From Anaerolineae bacterium (GTDB lineage: Bacteria > Chloroflexota > Anaerolineae > UBA1429), in NCBI GenBank assembly GCA_050949345.1, contig JBMNFN010000001.1:706931-770930 (forward strand): a stretch of 64,000 bases of DNA. Reading direction: 5' to 3'. The notes under the pieces were generated by a model, which saw only the letters and a list, made by a program, of their open reading frames with translations, searched no databases and was not told where the DNA came from. The translations under genes were made by a program, and so were the position numbers. Positions 2-17,232 of the stretch are shown here, one piece after another; position 1 is the first letter of the stretch; the number at the start of each line of letters is the position of its first letter.

Positions 2-910
2 GCTGCCGGGCGTGATCTGCTGCGCCCCTTTGTGGAGGCCTGCCACCGTGCCCAAATGCCGGTGGGCTTTTACTACTCCCTGCTGGACTGGCGCTACCCC
101 GCCTATTTTGCGGGACCCCGGCGCGACCCGGCAGGCTGGCTCGAGCTGGTCCAATATATGCACGCGCAGGTGCGCGAGCTGTGCACCAACTATGGCAAGC
201 TGGATATCCTCTGGTACGACGGAGGCTGGCCCTATACCGCGCAGGATTGGCGCTCGGACGAGTTGAACACCATGGTGCGCGAGCTGCAGCCCGGGATCAT
301 CATCAACAACCGGGCGCAACTGCCCGCAGACTTTGACACGCCCGAACAGCATGTGGCAGCCTCGGCGCCGGGCCGCCCCTGGGAGGCGTGTATCACGCTG
401 AACGGGAGCTGGGGCTATAACGCGGCGGATGACGAATGGAAGAGTCCCCGGCAGGTGGTCAGTACGCTGGTGCGTTGTGCCTCAGGGGGCGGCAATCTGC
501 TGCTGAACGTGGGCCCCAGGCCCGATGGGACCATACCTGCGGAATCTGAGCAGATTCTGCGCCGGGTCGGAGAGTGGCTGGATGTCAATGGTGAGTCCAT
601 CTATGGCACGGACCGCTCTCCCTTTTTCACCTCCACAGGCATGACCACGCTGCGCGGCAAAAGTTTGTACGTGCACGTGCTGCGCTGGCCCGGCAGCGAG
701 CTGGTGGTGCCGCGCCTGCTCACGCCGGTCAGCTCGGCACGCTTTCTGGCGAACGGAGAGCCCATCGCCTGGGAACAGCGGGGTGACCGTGTGTTCCTCC
801 AAGAGTTGCCTGCAGCAGCGCCTGACGATCTCGATACCGTGATCGTGCTGGAGCTGGAGGGTGAACCGCGGGCGTTAGATTACTTTGTCGATGGCTGGGA
901 GCAGAGCTGA
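2..910 (+). CDS. alpha-L-fucosidase (GH29), N-terminus lies upstream of the window
   Basis: The 32..910 ORF frame is open to the window edge. GH29-like motifs are present (DILWYDGGW, LLLNVGP). The C-terminal fucosidase beta-sandwich is encoded. Confidence 0.75.
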   Translation, partial: AAGRDLLRPFVEACHRAQMPVGFYYSLLDWRYPAYFAGPRRDPAGWLELVQYMHAQVRELCTNYGKLDILWYDGGWPYTAQDWRSDELNTMVRELQPGIIINNRAQLPADFDTPEQHVAASAPGRPWEACITLNGSWGYNAADDEWKSPRQVVSTLVRCASGGGNLLLNVGPRPDGTIPAESEQILRRVGEWLDVNGESIYGTDRSPFFTSTGMTTLRGKSLYVHVLRWPGSELVVPRLLTPVSSARFLANGEPIAWEQRGDRVFLQELPAAAPDDLDTVIVLELEGEPRALDYFVDGWEQS

Positions 911-3194: not shown

Positions 3195-3310
3195 CGCGCC
3201 GCGATGAGGGGAGACAACGCTGCTGATGCAGGTCGACCAGTCTCTTGAGCGCTACGATTGTGACCATTTCACCCAACCCGCCGGGCTGGGTTGCGCCTGA
3301 TGGGAGTATT

Positions 3311-5581
3311 ATGTCCACCATTAAGAACGGGCGCCAGCAGGTGGTCGCCTTTGCCGGTACGCAGGGGCTTGCCATGCTGGTGTCAGCTTACCGCGATGCC
3401 CCCTGGGACATCACCGGGGTTGTACCGCCTGCCAATGCGGGCGCGGCTTTTGCACAGTTGCATTCGACCATCGGCGCCAGCGCCGACGAAATAGTGATCC
3501 CTACGCTGGACCGTGTAGAGGTTTGCGCCGAACTCTCTGATGGGGAACATCTGCTCGGAGAAAGCGCCATCACCGAGGGCGCCAACGGCGCTGTGATCAA
3601 GCGGGTCTTTTTGGTCTCGGACAGCCCCGGTCGGCCCACCAGCGATTTTCGCCCTACCCCCGAGGTGCTGCAGGCCCTCGAGTCGGCGGATGCCATCGTG
3701 ATCGGTCCGGGGTCCCTGTTCACCAACCTGATCCCCTCCCTGTTGATCAAAGAGATCAACTCGGCGGTGCGGGCCAGTTCCGCGCGCAAGATCTTTATCT
3801 GCAACCTGATGACGCAGCCCAATCAGACCGAAGGTTTTTCCGTGGCGGACCATGTGCGCACCATCCAGCAGCACTGCAGCCTGCGCTTTGACTATGTGCT
3901 GGCGCACCATGGGGGCGCCATCAGCCCCGAGGTGCTGCAGCGCTATCACGAGAGCGCCGCCGAGCTGGTGGTTCCCCAGCTGGTAGTCAACGATGGCTCG
4001 CAAGTGGCCATCTTTCCCGACTCTCCGCAAGAAATGGTGCTGGTGGAGGGCGCCATCCTGATGTTGCGGGACCTCGCCATGGAGGTGTTGCAGAACGACC
4101 CGGTCACCGGCGAGCCGCACCTGGTGGTCCGGCATGATCCCGTCAAGCTGGGTGACGCGTTGCGCTCGGTGCTGCACGACTATGCCCTGGAGAAAAAACT
4201 CTCGGTCAGCCGGGCCATCTTTCGCGAGTATGACATTCGCGGCATCGTGGGCGCCGAGCTCACCAACTCGGCACTGGAGGCCATGGGCCGCGCCTTTGGC
4301 ACCTATATCCTGCGACGTACCGGTCGCGGACAGATCGTCATCGGACACGACGCACGCCCGAGCTCTCTGCCTTTCAGCCAGGCCGCCATTCGGGGCCTGC
4401 TGGATGCGGGATGCGAGGTGCTGGACATTGGCCAGGTGCCGACGCCACTGACCTCCTTTGCGGTCAACCATTTTTGGGTGGATGGTGCCATTCAGGTGAC
4501 CGCCAGCCACAACCCCGCTGAATTCAACGGGCTCAAGCTGCAGGTGGGCATGGAGCCCCTGGCTGGCGCCGAGCTGCAAAAGGTAGAGCGCCTGATCGCC
4601 AGTGGCGCCTTTACCAGCGGGCGAGGCCAGCATCTGGTACGCGACGTAGAGTATCCCTACCTGAACTGCCTCCTGCACAAGGTGAGCCTTTCGCGTCCTT
4701 TTAAAGTGGCGGTGGACGCCGGCCATGGCGTCAACGGCCCGCTGGCCCTGCGCCTCTTGCGCGAACTGGGTTGCCAGGTGGTGCCGCTGTACTGCGAACC
4801 CGATGGCACCTTTCCCGCGCACTCGCCCGATCCGGCAGAGGCCGAGAACCTGCGTGACCTCTCCCAGGCGGTTGTCGCACACGGTTGTGATGTAGGCATT
4901 GCCTTTGACGGAGATGGCGATCGTATCGGCATCGTAGATGAGCGGGGCGCCATCCTGCCGCCAGACGTCTATCTGCTGCTCTTTGCCCGTGAGGCGCTGC
5001 GCGCCGGCCCTGGCAAAGCGGTGTTCGAGGTGCGCTGTTCCGAGATGCTCTTTGACGGCGTACAAAAGTACGGGGGCATCCCTATCATGTCACGCTGCGG
5101 CAATACCTCCATCCTGCCGCGCATGCACCAGGAGCGAGCGGTCATCGGCGGCGAGCTCAGCGGCCATATCTTTTTCAATGACCCGCCCATCGAGTTTGAC
5201 GATGGCTTGTTCGCTGCAGCGCGACTGCTGGAGTATCTGGACCGGTCTGGCATCCCCTTGAGCCAAATGGTGACTCAGCTGCTGGAAGGGCTGCCGCGCT
5301 ATATCAGCTCGCCCGAGATCCGCATCGATTGCCCCGACTATATGAAGGATCAGGTAGTTGAGATGGTGCGCGATGCCTATGCGCACCAATACCGGGTGAT
5401 CGACATCGACGGCGCCCGCATCTACTTTGACGACCGGGATTGGGCCCTGATACGGGCCTCTAATACGTCGCCCAAGCTCTCGCTGCGTTTCGAGGCGCTG
5501 GACCAGGTCAAGATGGAGGCGATGAAGGCCTCCATGCACACCGAGCTGATACGGCACCTGCCCGAGGTCAGGCCGTTTTAG
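3311..5581 (+). CDS. Fusion protein: YvcK/GlmR-like (UPF0052, CofD-like) N-terminal domain plus phosphohexomutase (PMM/PGM/GlmM family) C-terminal domain
   Basis: N-terminal motifs AIVIGPGSLFTNLIPSLL and ICNLMTQPNQTEGFSVADH are typical of YvcK. C-terminal TASHNPAEFNGLK (phosphoserine loop), GIAFDGDGDR (Mg loop) and GELSGH (sugar loop) match the alpha-D-phosphohexomutase superfamily. GGGAG RBS sits 5 nt before the ATG at 3311. A longer TTG-initiated ORF begins at 3245. Confidence 0.8.
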   Translation: MSTIKNGRQQVVAFAGTQGLAMLVSAYRDAPWDITGVVPPANAGAAFAQLHSTIGASADEIVIPTLDRVEVCAELSDGEHLLGESAITEGANGAVIKRVFLVSDSPGRPTSDFRPTPEVLQALESADAIVIGPGSLFTNLIPSLLIKEINSAVRASSARKIFICNLMTQPNQTEGFSVADHVRTIQQHCSLRFDYVLAHHGGAISPEVLQRYHESAAELVVPQLVVNDGSQVAIFPDSPQEMVLVEGAILMLRDLAMEVLQNDPVTGEPHLVVRHDPVKLGDALRSVLHDYALEKKLSVSRAIFREYDIRGIVGAELTNSALEAMGRAFGTYILRRTGRGQIVIGHDARPSSLPFSQAAIRGLLDAGCEVLDIGQVPTPLTSFAVNHFWVDGAIQVTASHNPAEFNGLKLQVGMEPLAGAELQKVERLIASGAFTSGRGQHLVRDVEYPYLNCLLHKVSLSRPFKVAVDAGHGVNGPLALRLLRELGCQVVPLYCEPDGTFPAHSPDPAEAENLRDLSQAVVAHGCDVGIAFDGDGDRIGIVDERGAILPPDVYLLLFAREALRAGPGKAVFEVRCSEMLFDGVQKYGGIPIMSRCGNTSILPRMHQERAVIGGELSGHIFFNDPPIEFDDGLFAAARLLEYLDRSGIPLSQMVTQLLEGLPRYISSPEIRIDCPDYMKDQVVEMVRDAYAHQYRVIDIDGARIYFDDRDWALIRASNTSPKLSLRFEALDQVKMEAMKASMHTELIRHLPEVRPF

Positions 5582-9684: not shown

Positions 9685-9713
9685 TTGACAGACATACCCC
9701 CTGTTGGTATACT
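9685..9713 (+). promoter_or_regulatory. Sigma-70 promoter with extended -10 (TTGACA-17-TGgTATACT)
   Basis: TTGACA 9685-9690, 17-nt spacer, TG at 9705-9706, TATACT 9708-9713. AGGAGG RBS at 9742-9747 precedes the ATG at 9752. Confidence 0.55.
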
Positions 9714-9751
9714 GTGCGGCGTTTCACAGGTTGGCATCGTCAGGAGGCTGT

Positions 9752-12229
9752 ATGAGCACTGTTGTCATTGTCGGTGGAGTGGCAGGAGGAGCGACCGCAG
9801 CGGCCCGGCTGCGCAGGCTGGACGAATTCGCCGAGATCATCATCATCGAACGCGGGCAACACGTGTCTTTTGCCAACTGTGGGCTGCCTTATCACATCGG
9901 CGGCGTCATCAAGCAGCGCGACGCGCTGCTGTTGGCGACGCCCGAAAGCCTCCGCAGCACCTATAACATCGACGTCCGTGTGCAGCAGGAAGCGCAGGCC
10001 ATCGATCCCGAGGCTCACACGCTGACGGTGCGTAACCTCGTTACGGGTGAAGCCTACGAGCTGCATTATGACAAATTGATCCTTTCCCCCGGCGCCGCAC
10101 CCATCGTGCCCCCCTTGCCCGGCGTGGACCTGGACGGCGTGTTTACCCTGCGCAATATCGCCGATATGGACCAGATTCTGGCGCGCCTGGATACCCAGCC
10201 CAGAGATGCGCTGGTGGTGGGCGGTGGCTTTATCGGTCTGGAGATGGCAGAGAACCTCACCGCGCGCGGCCTGAACGTCGCCCTGGTGGAGATGGTGCCT
10301 CAGGTCATGGCGCCCATCGACCCGGACATGGCCGCTCTGGTGCATCGTGAGCTGCGACGCAACAACATCCGTCTGGCGCTGGGCGATGGCCTGCAGTCCA
10401 TCGAGCGCGCCCCCGACGGGCGTTTGACCGTGCGCCTGGCCAGCGGCCGCGCGGCAGAGGCGGATCTCGTAATGCTGGCCATCGGCGTGCGTCCCGAGAC
10501 GCAGTTGGCCAAAGCGGCCGGGCTGGAGCTTGGCCCGCGGGGCCACATCGTGGTGGACCCGTATATGCAGACCTCGCAGCCCGACATTCTGGCCGTGGGC
10601 GACGCGATCCAGGTCACGGATCCGGTGCTGAACCGGCTCACGGCAGTGCCTCTGGCAGGCCCGGCCAACTGGCAGGCCCGCATCGCTGCCGACACCATCG
10701 TCGGGCGCAAGGTGGCCTACCGCGGCACCTTTGGCGCCGCCATCGTCAAAGTGTATGACCTGACCATCGGCTGTGTGGGCGCAAACAGCCGTACGCTGGA
10801 CCAGGCGGGCATCGCCTACCGCACCAGTGTGACCCACTCTTATGACCACGCCGGCTACTATCCCGGCGCCACCCAGCAGACCATCAAGCTGCTGTACGCC
10901 ACGGAGGATGGCCGGCTGCTGGGCGCCCAGGCAGTGGGCATGCACGCCATCGATCGTACCATCGACGTGTTAGCCACGGCCCTCAGCCAGCGGGCGACGG
11001 TGTATGACCTGGAGCACCTCGAGCTGGCCTATGCCCCGCCCTTTGGCGCCGCCAAAGATCCGGTGAACATCGCGGGTTACATCGCCGCAGGCGCGCTGCG
11101 GGGCGACACTACGCCCGTCTCCTGCCAGGAGGTGGCAGCGCTAGACCCCACCCAGGCCACCTTGATCGACGTGAGGACCGATCTGGAGTGGGGACTGGGA
11201 CACATGGAGGGTGCTCTGCACATTCCGCAGGCGCAATTGCGCAGCCGGCTGGGCGAGCTGGACCGCGGACAGCGCTACATCACCTACTGCACCGTAGGAC
11301 AACGCTCTTATGTTTCTGAACGGGTGCTCAAACAGCACGGCTTGGACGCGGGCTCGCTCTCCGGAGGGTACGCGCATTACGAGGTGGCCACCGAGCAGCA
11401 GGATAATTGGGACAGCTGGAGGCCGCCCGAGTCCAAACTGAACGCCACCCCTGCATCACAGAGCAACCCTGTGGCGGCAGCGCCGGTGGCCGCCCAATCG
11501 GTGATCGAGCTCGACGCTTGCGGTTTGCAGTGCCCCGGGCCGATCATGGCCGTGTACCGTCGCATGCAAGAGCTCGAGCCCGGGCAGGTGCTGCAGGCCC
11601 GTGCCACCGATCAGGGGTTTGTGCGCGATGTGGCTACCTGGGCGGAGAGCACGGGCAATCGACTGTTGGACCTGACCCAGGACAAGGGCGTTATCACCGC
11701 CACGCTGGTCAAGGGCGAGGCGCTGCCCGAGCTGCAGGCAAGCCCCAGTGGCGCACTGCCCCGTGGCAAGACGCTGATCGTCTTTTCTGGAGATCTGGAT
11801 CACGCCATGGCAGCCATGATCATCGCCAACGGTGCCGCGGCCATGGGCCAACCGGTGAGCGTGTTCTTTACTTTCTGGGGTCTGAACCTGCTGCGCCGGC
11901 CCGACGGACCCACCCCGGCCAAGACCTTTATCGAGCGCATGTTTGGCTGGATGATGCCTCGCGGCGCACGACGCGTTCGCCTCTCCAACCTCAACATGCT
12001 GGGGCTGGGCACGGCCATGATGAAGGGCGTGATGCGCTCAAAGAATATCGACACGCTCGAGTCCCTGATCGCCTCTGCCCAGCAGGTGGGGGTCCGCCTG
12101 ATCGCCTGCCAGATGACCATGGACATGATGGGCATCAAGCCAGAAGAGCTGATCGACGGCGTCGAAATCGGCGGCGTGGCGACGATGCTGGGAGAAACGG
12201 ACAAGGGTAACGGCACCTGGTTTATCTAG
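9752..12229 (+). CDS. Four-domain CoA-disulfide/persulfide reductase: FAD/NAD(P) pyridine-nucleotide disulfide oxidoreductase (CoADR-type) - rhodanese - TusA-like - DsrE/DsrF-like
   Basis: VVIVGGVAGG FAD fold. Single-Cys CoADR active site SFANCGLPY. Rhodanese loop YCTVGQRS. TusA CPxP motif (LQCPGP). DsrE-like tail with conserved Cys (IACQMT). Confidence 0.85.
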   Translation: MSTVVIVGGVAGGATAAARLRRLDEFAEIIIIERGQHVSFANCGLPYHIGGVIKQRDALLLATPESLRSTYNIDVRVQQEAQAIDPEAHTLTVRNLVTGEAYELHYDKLILSPGAAPIVPPLPGVDLDGVFTLRNIADMDQILARLDTQPRDALVVGGGFIGLEMAENLTARGLNVALVEMVPQVMAPIDPDMAALVHRELRRNNIRLALGDGLQSIERAPDGRLTVRLASGRAAEADLVMLAIGVRPETQLAKAAGLELGPRGHIVVDPYMQTSQPDILAVGDAIQVTDPVLNRLTAVPLAGPANWQARIAADTIVGRKVAYRGTFGAAIVKVYDLTIGCVGANSRTLDQAGIAYRTSVTHSYDHAGYYPGATQQTIKLLYATEDGRLLGAQAVGMHAIDRTIDVLATALSQRATVYDLEHLELAYAPPFGAAKDPVNIAGYIAAGALRGDTTPVSCQEVAALDPTQATLIDVRTDLEWGLGHMEGALHIPQAQLRSRLGELDRGQRYITYCTVGQRSYVSERVLKQHGLDAGSLSGGYAHYEVATEQQDNWDSWRPPESKLNATPASQSNPVAAAPVAAQSVIELDACGLQCPGPIMAVYRRMQELEPGQVLQARATDQGFVRDVATWAESTGNRLLDLTQDKGVITATLVKGEALPELQASPSGALPRGKTLIVFSGDLDHAMAAMIIANGAAAMGQPVSVFFTFWGLNLLRRPDGPTPAKTFIERMFGWMMPRGARRVRLSNLNMLGLGTAMMKGVMRSKNIDTLESLIASAQQVGVRLIACQMTMDMMGIKPEELIDGVEIGGVATMLGETDKGNGTWFI

Positions 12230-12285
12230 ACAGCATCCCCTGACGAAGGAGAGAGAACAGGCCACCGACACCGGTGGCCTGTTGC

Positions 12286-14808
12286 TTATTGCGGCGTCGC
12301 CGCAGTGCGATACAGCTTGCGGTACCAGCTATAGTTCTCATAGATCAGCCGCACATAGTCGTGCGCCTGTTGCGAAGGCAACGTCTCCCAAAAGAGGTCG
12401 TGGTCGGTGATGGTGCCACCACCGCTCCACTCTTTGAGGTTGCCTGGGCCGGCATTGTAGGCCACCAGCGCGGCGATCCAGTCGCGGTCATACAGGTTGA
12501 TCAAAAAGTTCATGAACCAGGCGCTGTAACGCAGGTTCAGGTAAGGACGCACCAGCAGGCCCACGGCATAGTCCTCGGGTCCGATCTGCGAGGCGATCCA
12601 CTCGCCGGTAGGAGGCATGATCTGGGCCAGGCCTACCGCTCCGGCATAGGAGCGGGCATGGGTGTCAAAGAGGCTCTCCTGCCGCACCAGCGCCAGCATC
12701 AGCAGCGGATCCAGATCATAGTGCCGAGCGTACTCGGCGATCAGGTCGGCATAATGCACCGGATAGGCCAACAGCCGCAGGGCGTCGGGTGGCTGTGCCG
12801 CACCGGCCTCATTCCCCAAACGCAAGAGACGCTGTGCGGCCCAGATCTCGGTGGAATAGGCACGCCATGACTCGGCAGCCTGCGCCAGCTCCACCAGCCA
12901 AAAAGGTCGGTCTCGCACTACCTGGCGAAGATGCAGATCGCTTTCGCGAGCCTCCTGAAACCACTCCAGGTGGTACAGCGCCTCCGTCTCGTGAAAGGCA
13001 GGATCGTCGGTGAGCACCGAGTCATCAGCAGGTGTCCAGGAAGAAACCCATGCCTCGAGCCCCTCCCAGTCTTCGGGAGACAGGGCTCGGTCGAGCGCAT
13101 CTCCGCTGACACCAGACGGAAGGCGTGGCATGGTGTGCTGGAGCAGATCGGCAGCGCGCAAACCATAGTATTCGTTGGGAGCGATGCGTACCGCCTCTTG
13201 CCAAAAGATGTCCGCTTGGTCCATCTGCCCTGCCTGGCGGGCGGCAAGCCCCATCCACACGATCAGGCGCACCCGCATCACGGGATCCTGGGTGGCGTCC
13301 AGCCGGGCACGCCAGGTGTTGGAGGCGCTGTACGGATCCCGCATGGCGTACCAGGCCAGGCCCTGGCGAAAGGCGGCGTCCGCGGCACGCTTGTCGGCAG
13401 GATACTTGTCCGCCAGCAGCCCGTAATAGTCAGCAGCCAGCTTCCAGTTGCCCGCATCCTCAGAGGCATTGGCAGCCCGCCACAGCGCCTCTGCCGCCCT
13501 GGGATGATCGGGATGATTCACATAGAACTCGTGATAAAAGCCAGAAGAATCTGCCCCGCTGGCGCCAATGGTAAAGGCGCGGGCAAACCAGGCCTCTGCC
13601 AACAGCGCCTGATCGCCAGCGGACTCGGTAGCGGCGCGCAGGTGTGCCAGCGCCCCTTCATAGTCCCCCTGCTTGCCCAGAGTGAGCCCGATGTAATAGT
13701 GGGCTTCGGCCTGGCCCCGCTCCGGCTTGGCATCCAGATAATAGTTCAGATACTCCAGGGCCAGGTTGTATTCCCCAGCGAAATAGTGGATCTTGCCCCG
13801 CGTCAGATCGCTCAAACCCGGGGTGGCCACGGTGCCGCTCACCGGATCTGAAGCCTCGACCTCTGCCTCGGGCGTCTCGGGCAGGGCCAGCAACTCTTTC
13901 AAGGCCAGGGTGGCGGCAAAGGTCTGCGGGCTGTTGTTGGCCACCTCGTAAAAAGTGGCCACTGCCTCCTCCTCGTGGCTGGCCTCGCGAAGCGTTTCAC
14001 CCTTGTAGTGCGTTACCAGGGCACGATAGTCCGGGATGGAGGCAAAGCTGAGAATATCGTCATACACCGTCAGCGCGCTGTTGGGGTCGCTGTTGGCACG
14101 ATAGGCACTGGCCAGTTCTGAGAGCACTTCGGCACGAAAAGAGGGCTCCAGGCGCGTTGTGTCGATCTGTTCCAGCGCATCCAGCTGGCTTCCGATGTCG
14201 TCAACGGCCTTGTGACAGGCTGCGATGCGCCACCAGACATAGGGTGCGGCAGCGGGAACGCGTGCAGCGTACTCCTCCAGTGAGGCGGCGGCCGCACGAT
14301 AGTCACCATCCGCCTGCTGCGCCGTGCCCAGCAGCCCCAGGGCATCGGCGTGGACGCTGGGGTCGGCCTCTACAGCAGCCAACCAGGAGGCCTGCCCCAT
14401 GGCCTTTTCCGTATCTCCCGCCTGGAGATAGAGCTGCGCCAGCTCCCAGGCCACCTCGGTCTGCAGTTCTGGCTCTGCGGCCGCCCCAATCTGGTTCCAC
14501 AGAGCGATGGCATGCTCCAGGTCCCCGCGCCACGCCGCCTGGCGCGCATCTTGCCGCATGCTGTCGACATCCTGTGGCTCTGCCGGAGGCGTGGCGGTGT
14601 CGATCCCTTCCAGCGGATCCTCAGGGGCTGGCTCTGGGGATGCGGTGGCGACCGGGGACTCGGCCAATGCACCCCCTGGCTCTTCACCGTTGGCCCCGGC
14701 CGTTGCCGCAGGGACCGGATCCACCGATGGCAGGCCATCACAGCCCCCCAACATGACAGCCAGCAACAGGAGCAGGACGATCAACAGGTGACAGCGGGCC
14801 CGAGTCAT
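12286..14808 (-). CDS. Lipoprotein lytic murein transglycosylase with N-terminal TPR/Sel1-like repeats and C-terminal SLT domain
   Basis: Lipobox LAVMLGGC. Repeated TPR-like helical region. C-terminal SLT motif RQESLFD...SYAGAVGLAQIMP. Confidence 0.8.
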   Translation of the reverse strand: MTRARCHLLIVLLLLLAVMLGGCDGLPSVDPVPAATAGANGEEPGGALAESPVATASPEPAPEDPLEGIDTATPPAEPQDVDSMRQDARQAAWRGDLEHAIALWNQIGAAAEPELQTEVAWELAQLYLQAGDTEKAMGQASWLAAVEADPSVHADALGLLGTAQQADGDYRAAAASLEEYAARVPAAAPYVWWRIAACHKAVDDIGSQLDALEQIDTTRLEPSFRAEVLSELASAYRANSDPNSALTVYDDILSFASIPDYRALVTHYKGETLREASHEEEAVATFYEVANNSPQTFAATLALKELLALPETPEAEVEASDPVSGTVATPGLSDLTRGKIHYFAGEYNLALEYLNYYLDAKPERGQAEAHYYIGLTLGKQGDYEGALAHLRAATESAGDQALLAEAWFARAFTIGASGADSSGFYHEFYVNHPDHPRAAEALWRAANASEDAGNWKLAADYYGLLADKYPADKRAADAAFRQGLAWYAMRDPYSASNTWRARLDATQDPVMRVRLIVWMGLAARQAGQMDQADIFWQEAVRIAPNEYYGLRAADLLQHTMPRLPSGVSGDALDRALSPEDWEGLEAWVSSWTPADDSVLTDDPAFHETEALYHLEWFQEARESDLHLRQVVRDRPFWLVELAQAAESWRAYSTEIWAAQRLLRLGNEAGAAQPPDALRLLAYPVHYADLIAEYARHYDLDPLLMLALVRQESLFDTHARSYAGAVGLAQIMPPTGEWIASQIGPEDYAVGLLVRPYLNLRYSAWFMNFLINLYDRDWIAALVAYNAGPGNLKEWSGGGTITDHDLFWETLPSQQAHDYVRLIYENYSWYRKLYRTAATPQ

Positions 14809-15593: not shown

Positions 15594-15687
15594 GCTAAAG
15601 GAACTCCCTCAATCTGAGTGAAGAACGCAACCTGTCCCTGATTATAGGGGCCGCAGAGCCCCTCCGCAACCCCCTGACCCCATGCTG

Positions 15688-15715
15688 TTGACACTGAAAA
15701 GGGCTGCCATATACT
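15688..15715 (+). promoter_or_regulatory. Sigma-70 promoter (TTGACA-16/17-TATACT) driving a leaderless GNAT transcript
   Basis: TTGACA 15688-15693, TATACT 15710-15715. The ATG at 15723 lies only about 7 nt downstream of the -10, leaving no room for an SD. Confidence 0.5.
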
Positions 15716-15722
15716 AGAGGAC

Positions 15723-16541
15723 ATGGCTCGCATAGAGATTCGGCGTGCCCTCCCCACCGCCCACGACGCGGCTGCGTTTGCCCGCGTCGAACGGACAACC
15801 CTTGGCGACAGCGACCTCTCACCACAAGAAATGCTTTTGGTTCTGCGTCGTGCGGAGCAATACGTCTATCTCGCCATGGCGGACGATCGCGCAGTCGGTG
15901 TGCTGGCCACTTGCGAGACTGGGGCGCAAGGCGGTATCCGTCTCGAGTTGGACATGCTGGGGGTGCTGACGGCGTGGCGGAACATGGGCATCGCCGGGTC
16001 GCTGGTGGCTGCCGCCCTGCACGATGGCCGTAGCAGAGGATGTACTTCATTTCGCGCAGTGGTGGCTGCCGACAACCTGGCCAGCCAAAAGGTGATGGCA
16101 CGGGCGGGGCTGGAAACCAGTGCCAGTGGGCAGAGCCTGCTGACGCAGGTCTTTGCCGATGATCCCGCCTCACTCCAATTGCCGCGGGGCTGGACGGTGC
16201 GCCTGGTGGCTGATCTGGCGCAGAGCGCCCCAGAGAACAGGGACTGGGCGCTGCCGGGCCACTGGGGCCTGTATCTTTCCGATGAGAGCGGCCGCGAGGT
16301 CGCTGCTGCGGCGCTCTTGCCTGTACAGACCATGGCTTGCGCCTCCTGCTGGATCGAAAAACTCGTCGTGCGTGATCCCGAGGCGGGGCAAATCCTGTTC
16401 CGGGCTGCTGCGGTAGCGGCTCAGAGGCGAGGCCGCGACGAGATCGGCGTCCTCCTGCCCAGGGACTCTGCACCAGAGGCAGCAGCCCTTGCCGCGGGCT
16501 ACCAAAGCGGCGGCGTCTATCACATCCTGATGGGATCCTGA
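15723..16541 (+). CDS. GNAT-family N-acetyltransferase (tandem acyl-CoA N-acyltransferase folds)
   Basis: GNAT-like core (RNMGIAGSLVAAAL..., QRRGRDEIGVLL). Coding-like composition in contrast to the arginine/proline-rich antisense ORF 15595..16551. Confidence 0.55.
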   Translation: MARIEIRRALPTAHDAAAFARVERTTLGDSDLSPQEMLLVLRRAEQYVYLAMADDRAVGVLATCETGAQGGIRLELDMLGVLTAWRNMGIAGSLVAAALHDGRSRGCTSFRAVVAADNLASQKVMARAGLETSASGQSLLTQVFADDPASLQLPRGWTVRLVADLAQSAPENRDWALPGHWGLYLSDESGREVAAAALLPVQTMACASCWIEKLVVRDPEAGQILFRAAAVAAQRRGRDEIGVLLPRDSAPEAAALAAGYQSGGVYHILMGS

Positions 16542-16542
16542 G

Positions 16543-17232
16543 ATGGAGCAATTGAAAAAGTTCTGGCCGCTGCTCCTCGGTGCGGCGGCTCTGGTCGCCT
16601 TGGCGCTCTGGATACGAACCTCTGGCGTGCTGGATCGTTTTGGAGACTGGAACGCTCTGGCCACCATGACCGAAGAAGTGGGCGGTTGGATGATCGTCTT
16701 TTTGCTGGCGGCTCAGGTAGTGCAGGTGCTGGTGCCGGTGATCCCCAGCCAGCTGTTGGGCATGGCGGCGGGATTCCTGTATGGCATCGTGGGGGGCACC
16801 TTTGTCTCCTGGTTTGGGACGGCGCTGGGGGGGATTCTAGCTATCGCCCTGGCCCGTCGGTACGGCCGTCCCTTTGTGGAAAAGCACGCCAGCCCTGAAA
16901 CGATAGACGAGATCGATGCCATCGCGCGACGCTTTGGCTCGTGGGGCTTTTTCCTGGTGGCACTGATCCCCTTTATGCCCACTGACATCGGGTGCTTTGT
17001 GGCGGGGCTCACCGCGCTGCGCATGCGCTCCACCATCATCCCCATCTCTCTGGGCAGGGTCCCCGGGCTGCTGGTGCTGAGTTATCTGGGCGCCACCTCT
17101 AAAGAGATCAGCCTGGAGGCGATGGTTCTCATCAGCGCCTTTACGCTCATCGTTGCCGGGATCCTGTGGCACTATCGGGAGCGTCTCGAAGGGCTGGGGC
17201 ACCGCGTGATGCAGCGGCTCAAGCTGTACTAG
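16543..17232 (+). CDS. DedA/TVP38/SNARE-associated family membrane protein
   Basis: Multi-TM product with DedA signature regions (VIPSQLLGMAAGFLYG, LIPFMPTDIGCFVAG). Confidence 0.8.
   Translation: MEQLKKFWPLLLGAAALVALALWIRTSGVLDRFGDWNALATMTEEVGGWMIVFLLAAQVVQVLVPVIPSQLLGMAAGFLYGIVGGTFVSWFGTALGGILAIALARRYGRPFVEKHASPETIDEIDAIARRFGSWGFFLVALIPFMPTDIGCFVAGLTALRMRSTIIPISLGRVPGLLVLSYLGATSKEISLEAMVLISAFTLIVAGILWHYRERLEGLGHRVMQRLKLY

Follow-up and report, generated by a model that had tools for sequence, protein, structure and literature searches.

What does a protein do that joins, in a single chain, a flavoprotein of the CoA-disulfide reductase (CoADR) type to rhodanese, TusA and DsrE-like domains, and under which conditions would a cell produce it? 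We address this question for the gene of such a four-domain protein (P0001, 825 residues), located in a 64,000-nucleotide stretch of DNA, hereafter the window, from an Anaerolineae bacterium of the phylum Chloroflexota (GenBank assembly GCA_050949345.1, contig JBMNFN010000001.1, positions 706,931 to 770,930 of the forward strand). We consider it likely that the product is a cytoplasmic NADH-dependent sulfane-sulfur (persulfide/polysulfide) reductase of the Npsr/CoAPR type, induced by reactive sulfur, whose additional carriers work inwards and whose expression is controlled by a CsoR-family repressor and, in this lineage, probably also by Rex. Within this assignment, the substrate, which way the sulfur moves and the identity of the binding repressor are the parts that we infer.

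Domain architecture and enzyme class

The original prediction, made from the DNA alone, described a single chain carrying CoADR, rhodanese, TusA and DsrE-like modules, and Pfam places all four, in that order (Table 1). The four cysteine motifs on which that description relied are all present, SFANCGLPY (Cys43), YCTVGQRS (Cys513), CPGP (Cys594) and ACQMT (Cys786), and careful alignment bears out a conserved cysteine in every module: all four residues are invariant among 47 homologous sequences with identities down to approximately 52%. The features of class I pyridine nucleotide-disulfide oxidoreductases are present (Pfam PF07992, PF00070 and PF02852), the GGVAGG (residues 8-13) and GGGFIG (157-162) motifs are likewise invariant, and Glu180 closes the second Rossmann strand in the alignment, as it does in the NADH-dependent Npsr. 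Conservation is highest in the reductase half, which retains every catalytic feature of the persulfide reductases.

Residues 2-547 match Npsr of Shewanella loihica (3nta, E 1e-158), CoADR-RHD of Bacillus anthracis (3icr) and CoAPR of Enterococcus faecalis (8a56). Cys43 aligns with Cys43 of Npsr within an identical SFANCGLPYH motif, and Cys513 with Npsr Cys531, the residue replaced by serine in the C531S entry (3ntd). The protein was modelled with AlphaFold2 from the alignment of 47 sequences, with a mean predicted local distance difference test score (pLDDT) of 86.8, and the first 547 residues of the model superpose on solved persulfide reductases with template modelling (TM) scores of 0.93-0.97 (Foldseek values, normalised to the target), root-mean-square deviations of 1.8-2.5 and 46-48% identity. 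Scores against the CoA-disulfide reductase equivalog models all fall below their cut-offs (TIGR03385, 458 vs 579 bits; NF010037, 355 vs 394; NF007123, 354 vs 458), and for this reason we class the protein as a persulfide reductase and not as a plain CoADR.

The two C-terminal modules are those of sulfur carriers. Cys594 aligns with Cys19 of Escherichia coli TusA/YhhP in LDALGLRCPEP, and Cys594, Pro595 and Pro597 of its CPxP motif are invariant in the alignment. Cys786 aligns with the conserved cysteine of three solved DsrE-like proteins (3pnx, 2qs7 and 3mc3), and the score of this domain against the DsrE2 equivalog (NF047629) lies below the cut-off, at 86 bits vs 210. Residues 562-581 and 659-668, the linkers that precede the two carriers, have pLDDT values below 50 in the AlphaFold2 model, which predicts disordered connections and suggests that the TusA and DsrE-like domains are tethered without rigid docking. 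We found no solved structure that spans all four domains.

Comparison with described systems brings out what the chain shares with each of them. Npsr (3NTA), CoAPR (8A56) and CoADR-RHD (3ICR) have the same reductase and rhodanese fold, with both catalytic cysteines aligned, but stop after the rhodanese and lack the TusA and DsrE-like domains, which amount to some 280 residues in the window protein. The CstA protein of Staphylococcus aureus, likened here by its published description, carries the same carrier trio in the same order (Rhd-TusA-DsrE) and is likewise under the control of a CsoR-family persulfide sensor; unlike the window protein it has no flavoprotein reductase, and it works with SQR and CstB in sulfide oxidation. 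The same domain types also relay sulfane sulfur or thiosulfonate through cysteines in the DsrE3A-TusA system of Metallosphaera cuprina and the Rhd-TusA-DsrEFH-DsrC system of Allochromatium, where, in contrast to the fused window protein, the TusA and DsrE carriers are stand-alone proteins that feed oxidative pathways.

Complete counterparts have been described in other phyla. Pcar_0429 of Pelobacter carbinolicus and BF638R_0572 of Bacteroides fragilis match the window protein in all four domains and in their order according to their published descriptions, the latter with nearly the same domain boundaries (its DrsE_2 domain ends at residue 825). The P. carbinolicus genome paper of 2012 reported the four domains of Pcar_0429 and proposed both the same relay and NADH-driven reduction (PMC3543383), and a B. 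fragilis study of 2018 reported the same domains in BF638R_0572, which was 50-fold derepressed in a bmoR mutant (PMC6158253). All 120 best homologues of the window protein carry the same domain set, the closest named ones among them coming from metagenome-assembled genomes of Anaerolineae and Chloroflexi. Homologues from two genomes (G018 and G031) were suspected of having a different C-terminus, a suspicion that we discarded once Pfam recovered all four domains in them and showed the linker to be longer. A search for the TusA-DsrE tail in proteins of similar length matched at least 7989 protein clusters (7989 of the 8000 scored candidates), and the ESM Atlas holds many clusters of 819-833 residues that combine these families, predominantly in Bacteroidota and Bacillota. 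The architecture occurs in Chloroflexota, Bacteroidota, Bacillota and other phyla, and of 36 genomes from the family of the source organism, 28 carry the gene.

The original prediction had asked whether the four-domain form might be a common, already characterised family. It is common, and it has been described; in the literature searched, no biochemical study of it was found. The architecture is thus not new, and the window gene is an ordinary further example of a widespread and already described kind, just as the relay idea is not new, having been printed in 2012 for Pcar_0429. What the present analysis adds is confined to the promoter and its likely repressors. The real gap is one of enzymology, for a family with thousands of members in gut and sediment anaerobes, and it includes the question of whether sulfur moves through the TusA and DsrE arms towards the reductase or away from it. 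The conserved double-operator promoter described below offers a handle on when cells use the enzyme.

Promoter and candidate repressors

The gene had been credited with a strong promoter and a Shine-Dalgarno sequence of its own, and both were located. The promoter (TTGACA-17-TATACT with a TG extension, 9685-9713) agrees with the consensus at 11 of 12 positions. The longest open reading frame (ORF) in this frame formally opens at a TTG codon at 9704. Judged from the sequences of the orthologues, however, the true start is the ATG at 9752, since the orthologues begin with MST(V/I)VIVGG, some of them with a stop codon just upstream, and since AGGAGG lies at 9742-9747.

A putative operator of the CsoR/CstR type, ATACCCCCTGTTGGTAT, is embedded in this promoter. 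It has the same form as ATACCCTTATGGGGTAT, the validated cst operator of Streptococcus mitis, which controls an operon containing the CoAPR gene coaP (PMC8643695), and the CoAPR gene of E. faecalis is also CstR-regulated (PMC9405070), as the window gene would be through its CstR-type operator. No other ATACC-N7-GGTAT occurs in the window, where none would be expected, and the source genome holds seven such sites vs none in a reversed control. The arrangement is retained in 23 of 25 orthologous upstream regions, as TTGACA, three to four bases and (A/T)TACCCCC..TATGGTAT running into the -10. A relaxed scan for TACC-N7-9-GGTA was uninformative (64 matches vs 232 in the control). One of the seven exact matches was set aside as a chance match because it falls in a CRISPR spacer; the array that holds this spacer lies at approximately 281,900-282,100 on contig C1 of the source genome and has the repeat GTATTCCCCACACGCGTGGGGGTGAACC.

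Two CsoR-family proteins are encoded in the genome. The first (C1:2211254-2211529) keeps both cysteines and has a tyrosine where the CsoR of Geobacillus has its copper-ligand histidine; under the W-X-Y-Z criterion, lack of this histidine marks sensors of the CstR type (PMC8643695). Its gene stands behind genes for a thioredoxin and a membrane-anchored thioredoxin-like protein, and this operon (C1:2210173-2211529) has a TTGACA-17-TATACT promoter followed by a similar operator, ATACCCTACAGGGGTAT. It probably encodes the sensor that controls both itself and the four-domain gene. Thioredoxin genes in three relatives have operators near-identical to that of the four-domain gene, with a single-base difference in one case. 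Taken together, these sequence matches lead us to infer a small thiol/reactive-sulfur regulon under the His-less CsoR paralogue. The second CsoR retains the Cys-His-Cys copper ligands, and its gene (C1:1487748-1487930) is followed by another thioredoxin gene. Perfect ATACCCCCATGGGGTA palindromes at C1:1027160 and C1:1494229 lie upstream of a CopZ-like gene (beside lexA) and of an aldo-keto reductase gene.

Other lineages appear to use other regulators. The B. fragilis gene is under a MarR-type repressor, BmoR, in contrast to the CsoR-type operator of the window gene, and ArsR-family genes stand directly upstream of two distant homologues; this diversity fits a stress-controlled enzyme. We do not call these ArsR-family proteins sensors of the BigR/SqrR type, as each has a single cysteine only. 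One such gene directly precedes the four-domain gene of a distant homologue on contig L039, where two Sulf_transp (YeeE/YedE-type) genes and a glutaredoxin gene (12545-14046) follow approximately 4 kb downstream.

A second candidate site, the Rex-like palindrome CTGTGCGGCGTTTCACAG, begins inside the -10. Matches of at least 9 of 12 positions to TTGTGA-N6-TCACAA recur at the same offset in 17 of 23 orthologous promoters vs 1.3% of shuffles, a figure that is not a probability because the genomes are kin. The motif is identical to the consensus published for Rex operators, TTGTGAA-N4-TTCACAA (PMC5355995), and five relatives have perfect copies of the palindrome at this gene. Across the genomes of five relatives, perfect TTGTGA-N6-TCACAA sites number one to three per genome vs none in the control, and they are found at the four-domain gene, in front of a trmD-rex operon, in three genomes ahead of a gene with a 4Fe-4S ferredoxin domain, and upstream of a DRTGG-domain gene. 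Near-identical Rex-like sites, TTGTGAATTATATCAC(T/A)A, precede a DRTGG-domain gene in two genomes (C1:1626538, and contig L042 of genome G020).

The source genome also has a rex gene, behind trmD. On this comparative sequence evidence, we regard Rex control of the four-domain gene in the source genome as about evenly balanced, and Rex control in the lineage at large as having the better chance. A factor of the CRP/FNR type may act at the palindrome instead of Rex. We rejected a reading of the palindrome as an RNA hairpin, given that the left arm, which shares bases with the -10, would lie outside the transcript.

Sulfur flow and competing functions

In the mechanism that we propose, electrons would pass from NADH through FAD to the Cys43 site and reduce a disulfide linked to Cys43, whose equivalent in the solved relatives forms a mixed disulfide with bound CoA. 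By analogy with Npsr and CoAPR, a persulfide on rhodanese Cys513 would be reduced and its sulfur freed as H2S. In its domain make-up the chain is a CoADR to which a CstA-like Rhd-TusA-DsrE trio has been joined, in which TusA (Cys594) and the DsrE2-like domain (Cys786), placed on two disordered linkers, would serve as extra sulfur carriers. Most likely, these carriers would collect sulfane sulfur from persulfides, whether of low molecular weight or on proteins, or from thiosulfonates, and bring it to the rhodanese site. A CsoR-family repressor would bind the operator inside the promoter, with the His-less, CstR-like paralogue as the likely candidate, and Rex would probably also bind the palindrome abutting the -10 in this lineage. 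Transcription of the gene would accordingly increase both when reactive sulfur stresses the cell and when NADH is abundant relative to NAD+.

The intramolecular relay at the centre of the original prediction is borne out as far as its parts are concerned, with four modules and a cysteine in each; the relay itself is plausible by analogy. In S. aureus CstA, the rhodanese domain can hand its persulfide on to TusA (PMC9918477 and PMC5480029), and in M. cuprina DsrE3A passes thiosulfate to TusA (PMC4175335), so that both directions of flow are chemically possible. We favour flow towards the reductase because the reductase half is the most conserved, because the gene appears to be under repressor control and because no acceptor gene of the dsrC, hdr or lbpA type lies near the four-domain gene.

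Several observations weigh against this assignment as a whole. No sulfur genes were found near the four-domain gene in the window, and in sulfur oxidisers the canonical order runs from Rhd through TusA to DsrE, away from the rhodanese and hence opposite in direction to the flow proposed. The predicted TM score (pTM) of the AlphaFold2 model, 0.67, leaves the packing of the domains open. The copper-type CsoR has a similar operator at copZ, and operator sequence alone cannot separate the two paralogues. Finally, the Rex-like site of the source genome is degenerate, with 9 of 12 positions and 11.5 bits on a position weight matrix (PWM) derived from the orthologous sites, and a genome-wide PWM scan for a Rex regulon gave weak enrichment (with a threshold of 14 bits, 21 sites vs 11 in the control).

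The alternative that survives best, although we hold it to be improbable, assigns the enzyme an energy or redox role as a fermentative or respiratory reductase of elemental sulfur (S0) or polysulfide, which re-oxidises NADH with sulfur as the electron sink and in which detoxification is secondary. This is exactly what PMC3543383 proposes for Pcar_0429, and NADH re-oxidation on sulfur has also been proposed for the Npsr of Shewanella. The Rex-type site, with its fixed position in most of the orthologous promoters, would couple expression to NADH/NAD+, and the other perfect sites of the relatives, at ferredoxin-domain and DRTGG-domain genes, agree with such a role. However, the site is degenerate in the source genome itself, the CstR-type operator and the regulation shared with thioredoxin speak for a stress response, and no membrane or sulfur-uptake genes lie near the four-domain gene. 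Archaeoglobus fulgidus, moreover, has an Npsr yet cannot respire S0 (PMC7969121).

Far less credible is a sulfur-mobilising sulfurtransferase, in which sulfur would pass from the rhodanese to TusA, to the DsrE-like domain and on to an external acceptor, for biosynthesis or oxidation, while the flavoprotein only resets or edits the carriers. The order of the domains in the chain corresponds to the known direction of transfer in Allochromatium (PMC9918477), and CstA can strip persulfide from SufS (PMC5480029). Such a role sits poorly with the conservation of the reductase half and its full set of catalytic features and with the missing acceptor gene, and repressor control suits the removal of sulfur better than its supply.

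We give least credence of all to a general thiol-disulfide or oxidative-stress reductase (acting, for instance, on CoA disulfide, tetrathionate or thiosulfonates), as suggested for BF638R_0572, which is derepressed in the bmoR mutant and is linked to the thioredoxin TrxP and to DoxDA (PMC6158253), since the window protein, although its best NCBIfam models are CoA-disulfide reductases, falls short of every CoADR cut-off and its closest solved rhodanese-bearing relatives are persulfide reductases and not CoADRs.

A persulfide/polysulfide reductase fed by its own carriers and induced by reactive sulfur thus remains our preferred reading. Beyond it, and more doubtfully, two stacked repressor sites in this Anaerolineae lineage, one for a CstR-like persulfide sensor and one for the NADH sensor Rex, could let the enzyme act as a redox valve, spending surplus NADH on the sulfane sulfur inside the cell, with tethered arms that would strip persulfides from proteins as well as from CoA.

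Gene surroundings and further observations

The four-domain gene is monocistronic, with a divergent D-Ala-D-Ala carboxypeptidase gene upstream and a convergent TPR/SLT transglycosylase gene downstream. The hairpin between the two convergent stop codons (fold energy -29.9 kcal/mol, z -4.4) is probably a bidirectional terminator that ends both genes. The positions of all features are collected in Table 1.

Table 1. Features of the four-domain gene and its product; nucleotide positions refer to the window and residues to protein P0001.
Feature	Nucleotides	Residues	Strand	Evidence or remark
-35 hexamer TTGACA	9685..9690		+	Conserved as TTGACA in 23 orthologous promoters
CsoR/CstR-type putative operator ATACCCCCTGTTGGTAT (ATACC-N7-GGTAT)	9694..9710		+	Between -35 and -10, overlapping the -10
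Extended -10 TGgTATACT	9705..9713		+	Sequence
Rex-like palindrome CTGTGCGGCGTTTCACAG	9712..9729		+	9/12 positions of TTGTGA-N6-TCACAA; starts inside the -10
Shine-Dalgarno AGGAGG	9742..9747		+	4 nt 5' of the ATG
Coding sequence, four-domain flavoprotein (P0001)	9752..12229	825 aa	+	Stop-free translation
CoADR-type FAD/NAD(P)H oxidoreductase and dimerisation domain	9758..11047	3-432	+	Pfam; Cys43 codon 9878-9880
Pyr_redox_2		3-286	+	Pfam, E 5.5e-61
Pyr_redox_dim		331-432	+	Pfam
Rhodanese	11144..11380	465-543	+	Pfam; Cys513 codon 11288-11290
TusA	11504..11707	585-652	+	Pfam, E 1.2e-17; Cys594 codon 11531-11533
DsrE2-like DrsE_2	11768..12211	673-820	+	Pfam PF13686, E 2.3e-55, 187 bits vs 25; Cys786 codon 12107-12109
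12-bp GC-rich hairpin	12256..12283			Between convergent stop codons

On the minus strand, window positions 9774-9942 match the Rfam model RF02819 (Vibrio antisense RNA AS7) with 77.5 bits vs a gathering score of 90 (E 3.5e-14). The match lies on the strand opposite the coding stretch that is best conserved in the CoADR domain, and most likely reflects protein-coding conservation caught by the model, not an antisense RNA here.

Two further ORFs of the window stand apart from the subject of this work. A 318-residue ORF without a Pfam match (15595-16551, minus strand) lies between a methyltransferase gene and a gene for a VTT-domain membrane protein. At 3245-5581 on the plus strand, a 778-residue ORF combines a CofD-like domain (PF01933) with a complete phosphoglucomutase/phosphomannomutase (domains I-IV), an unusual fusion.

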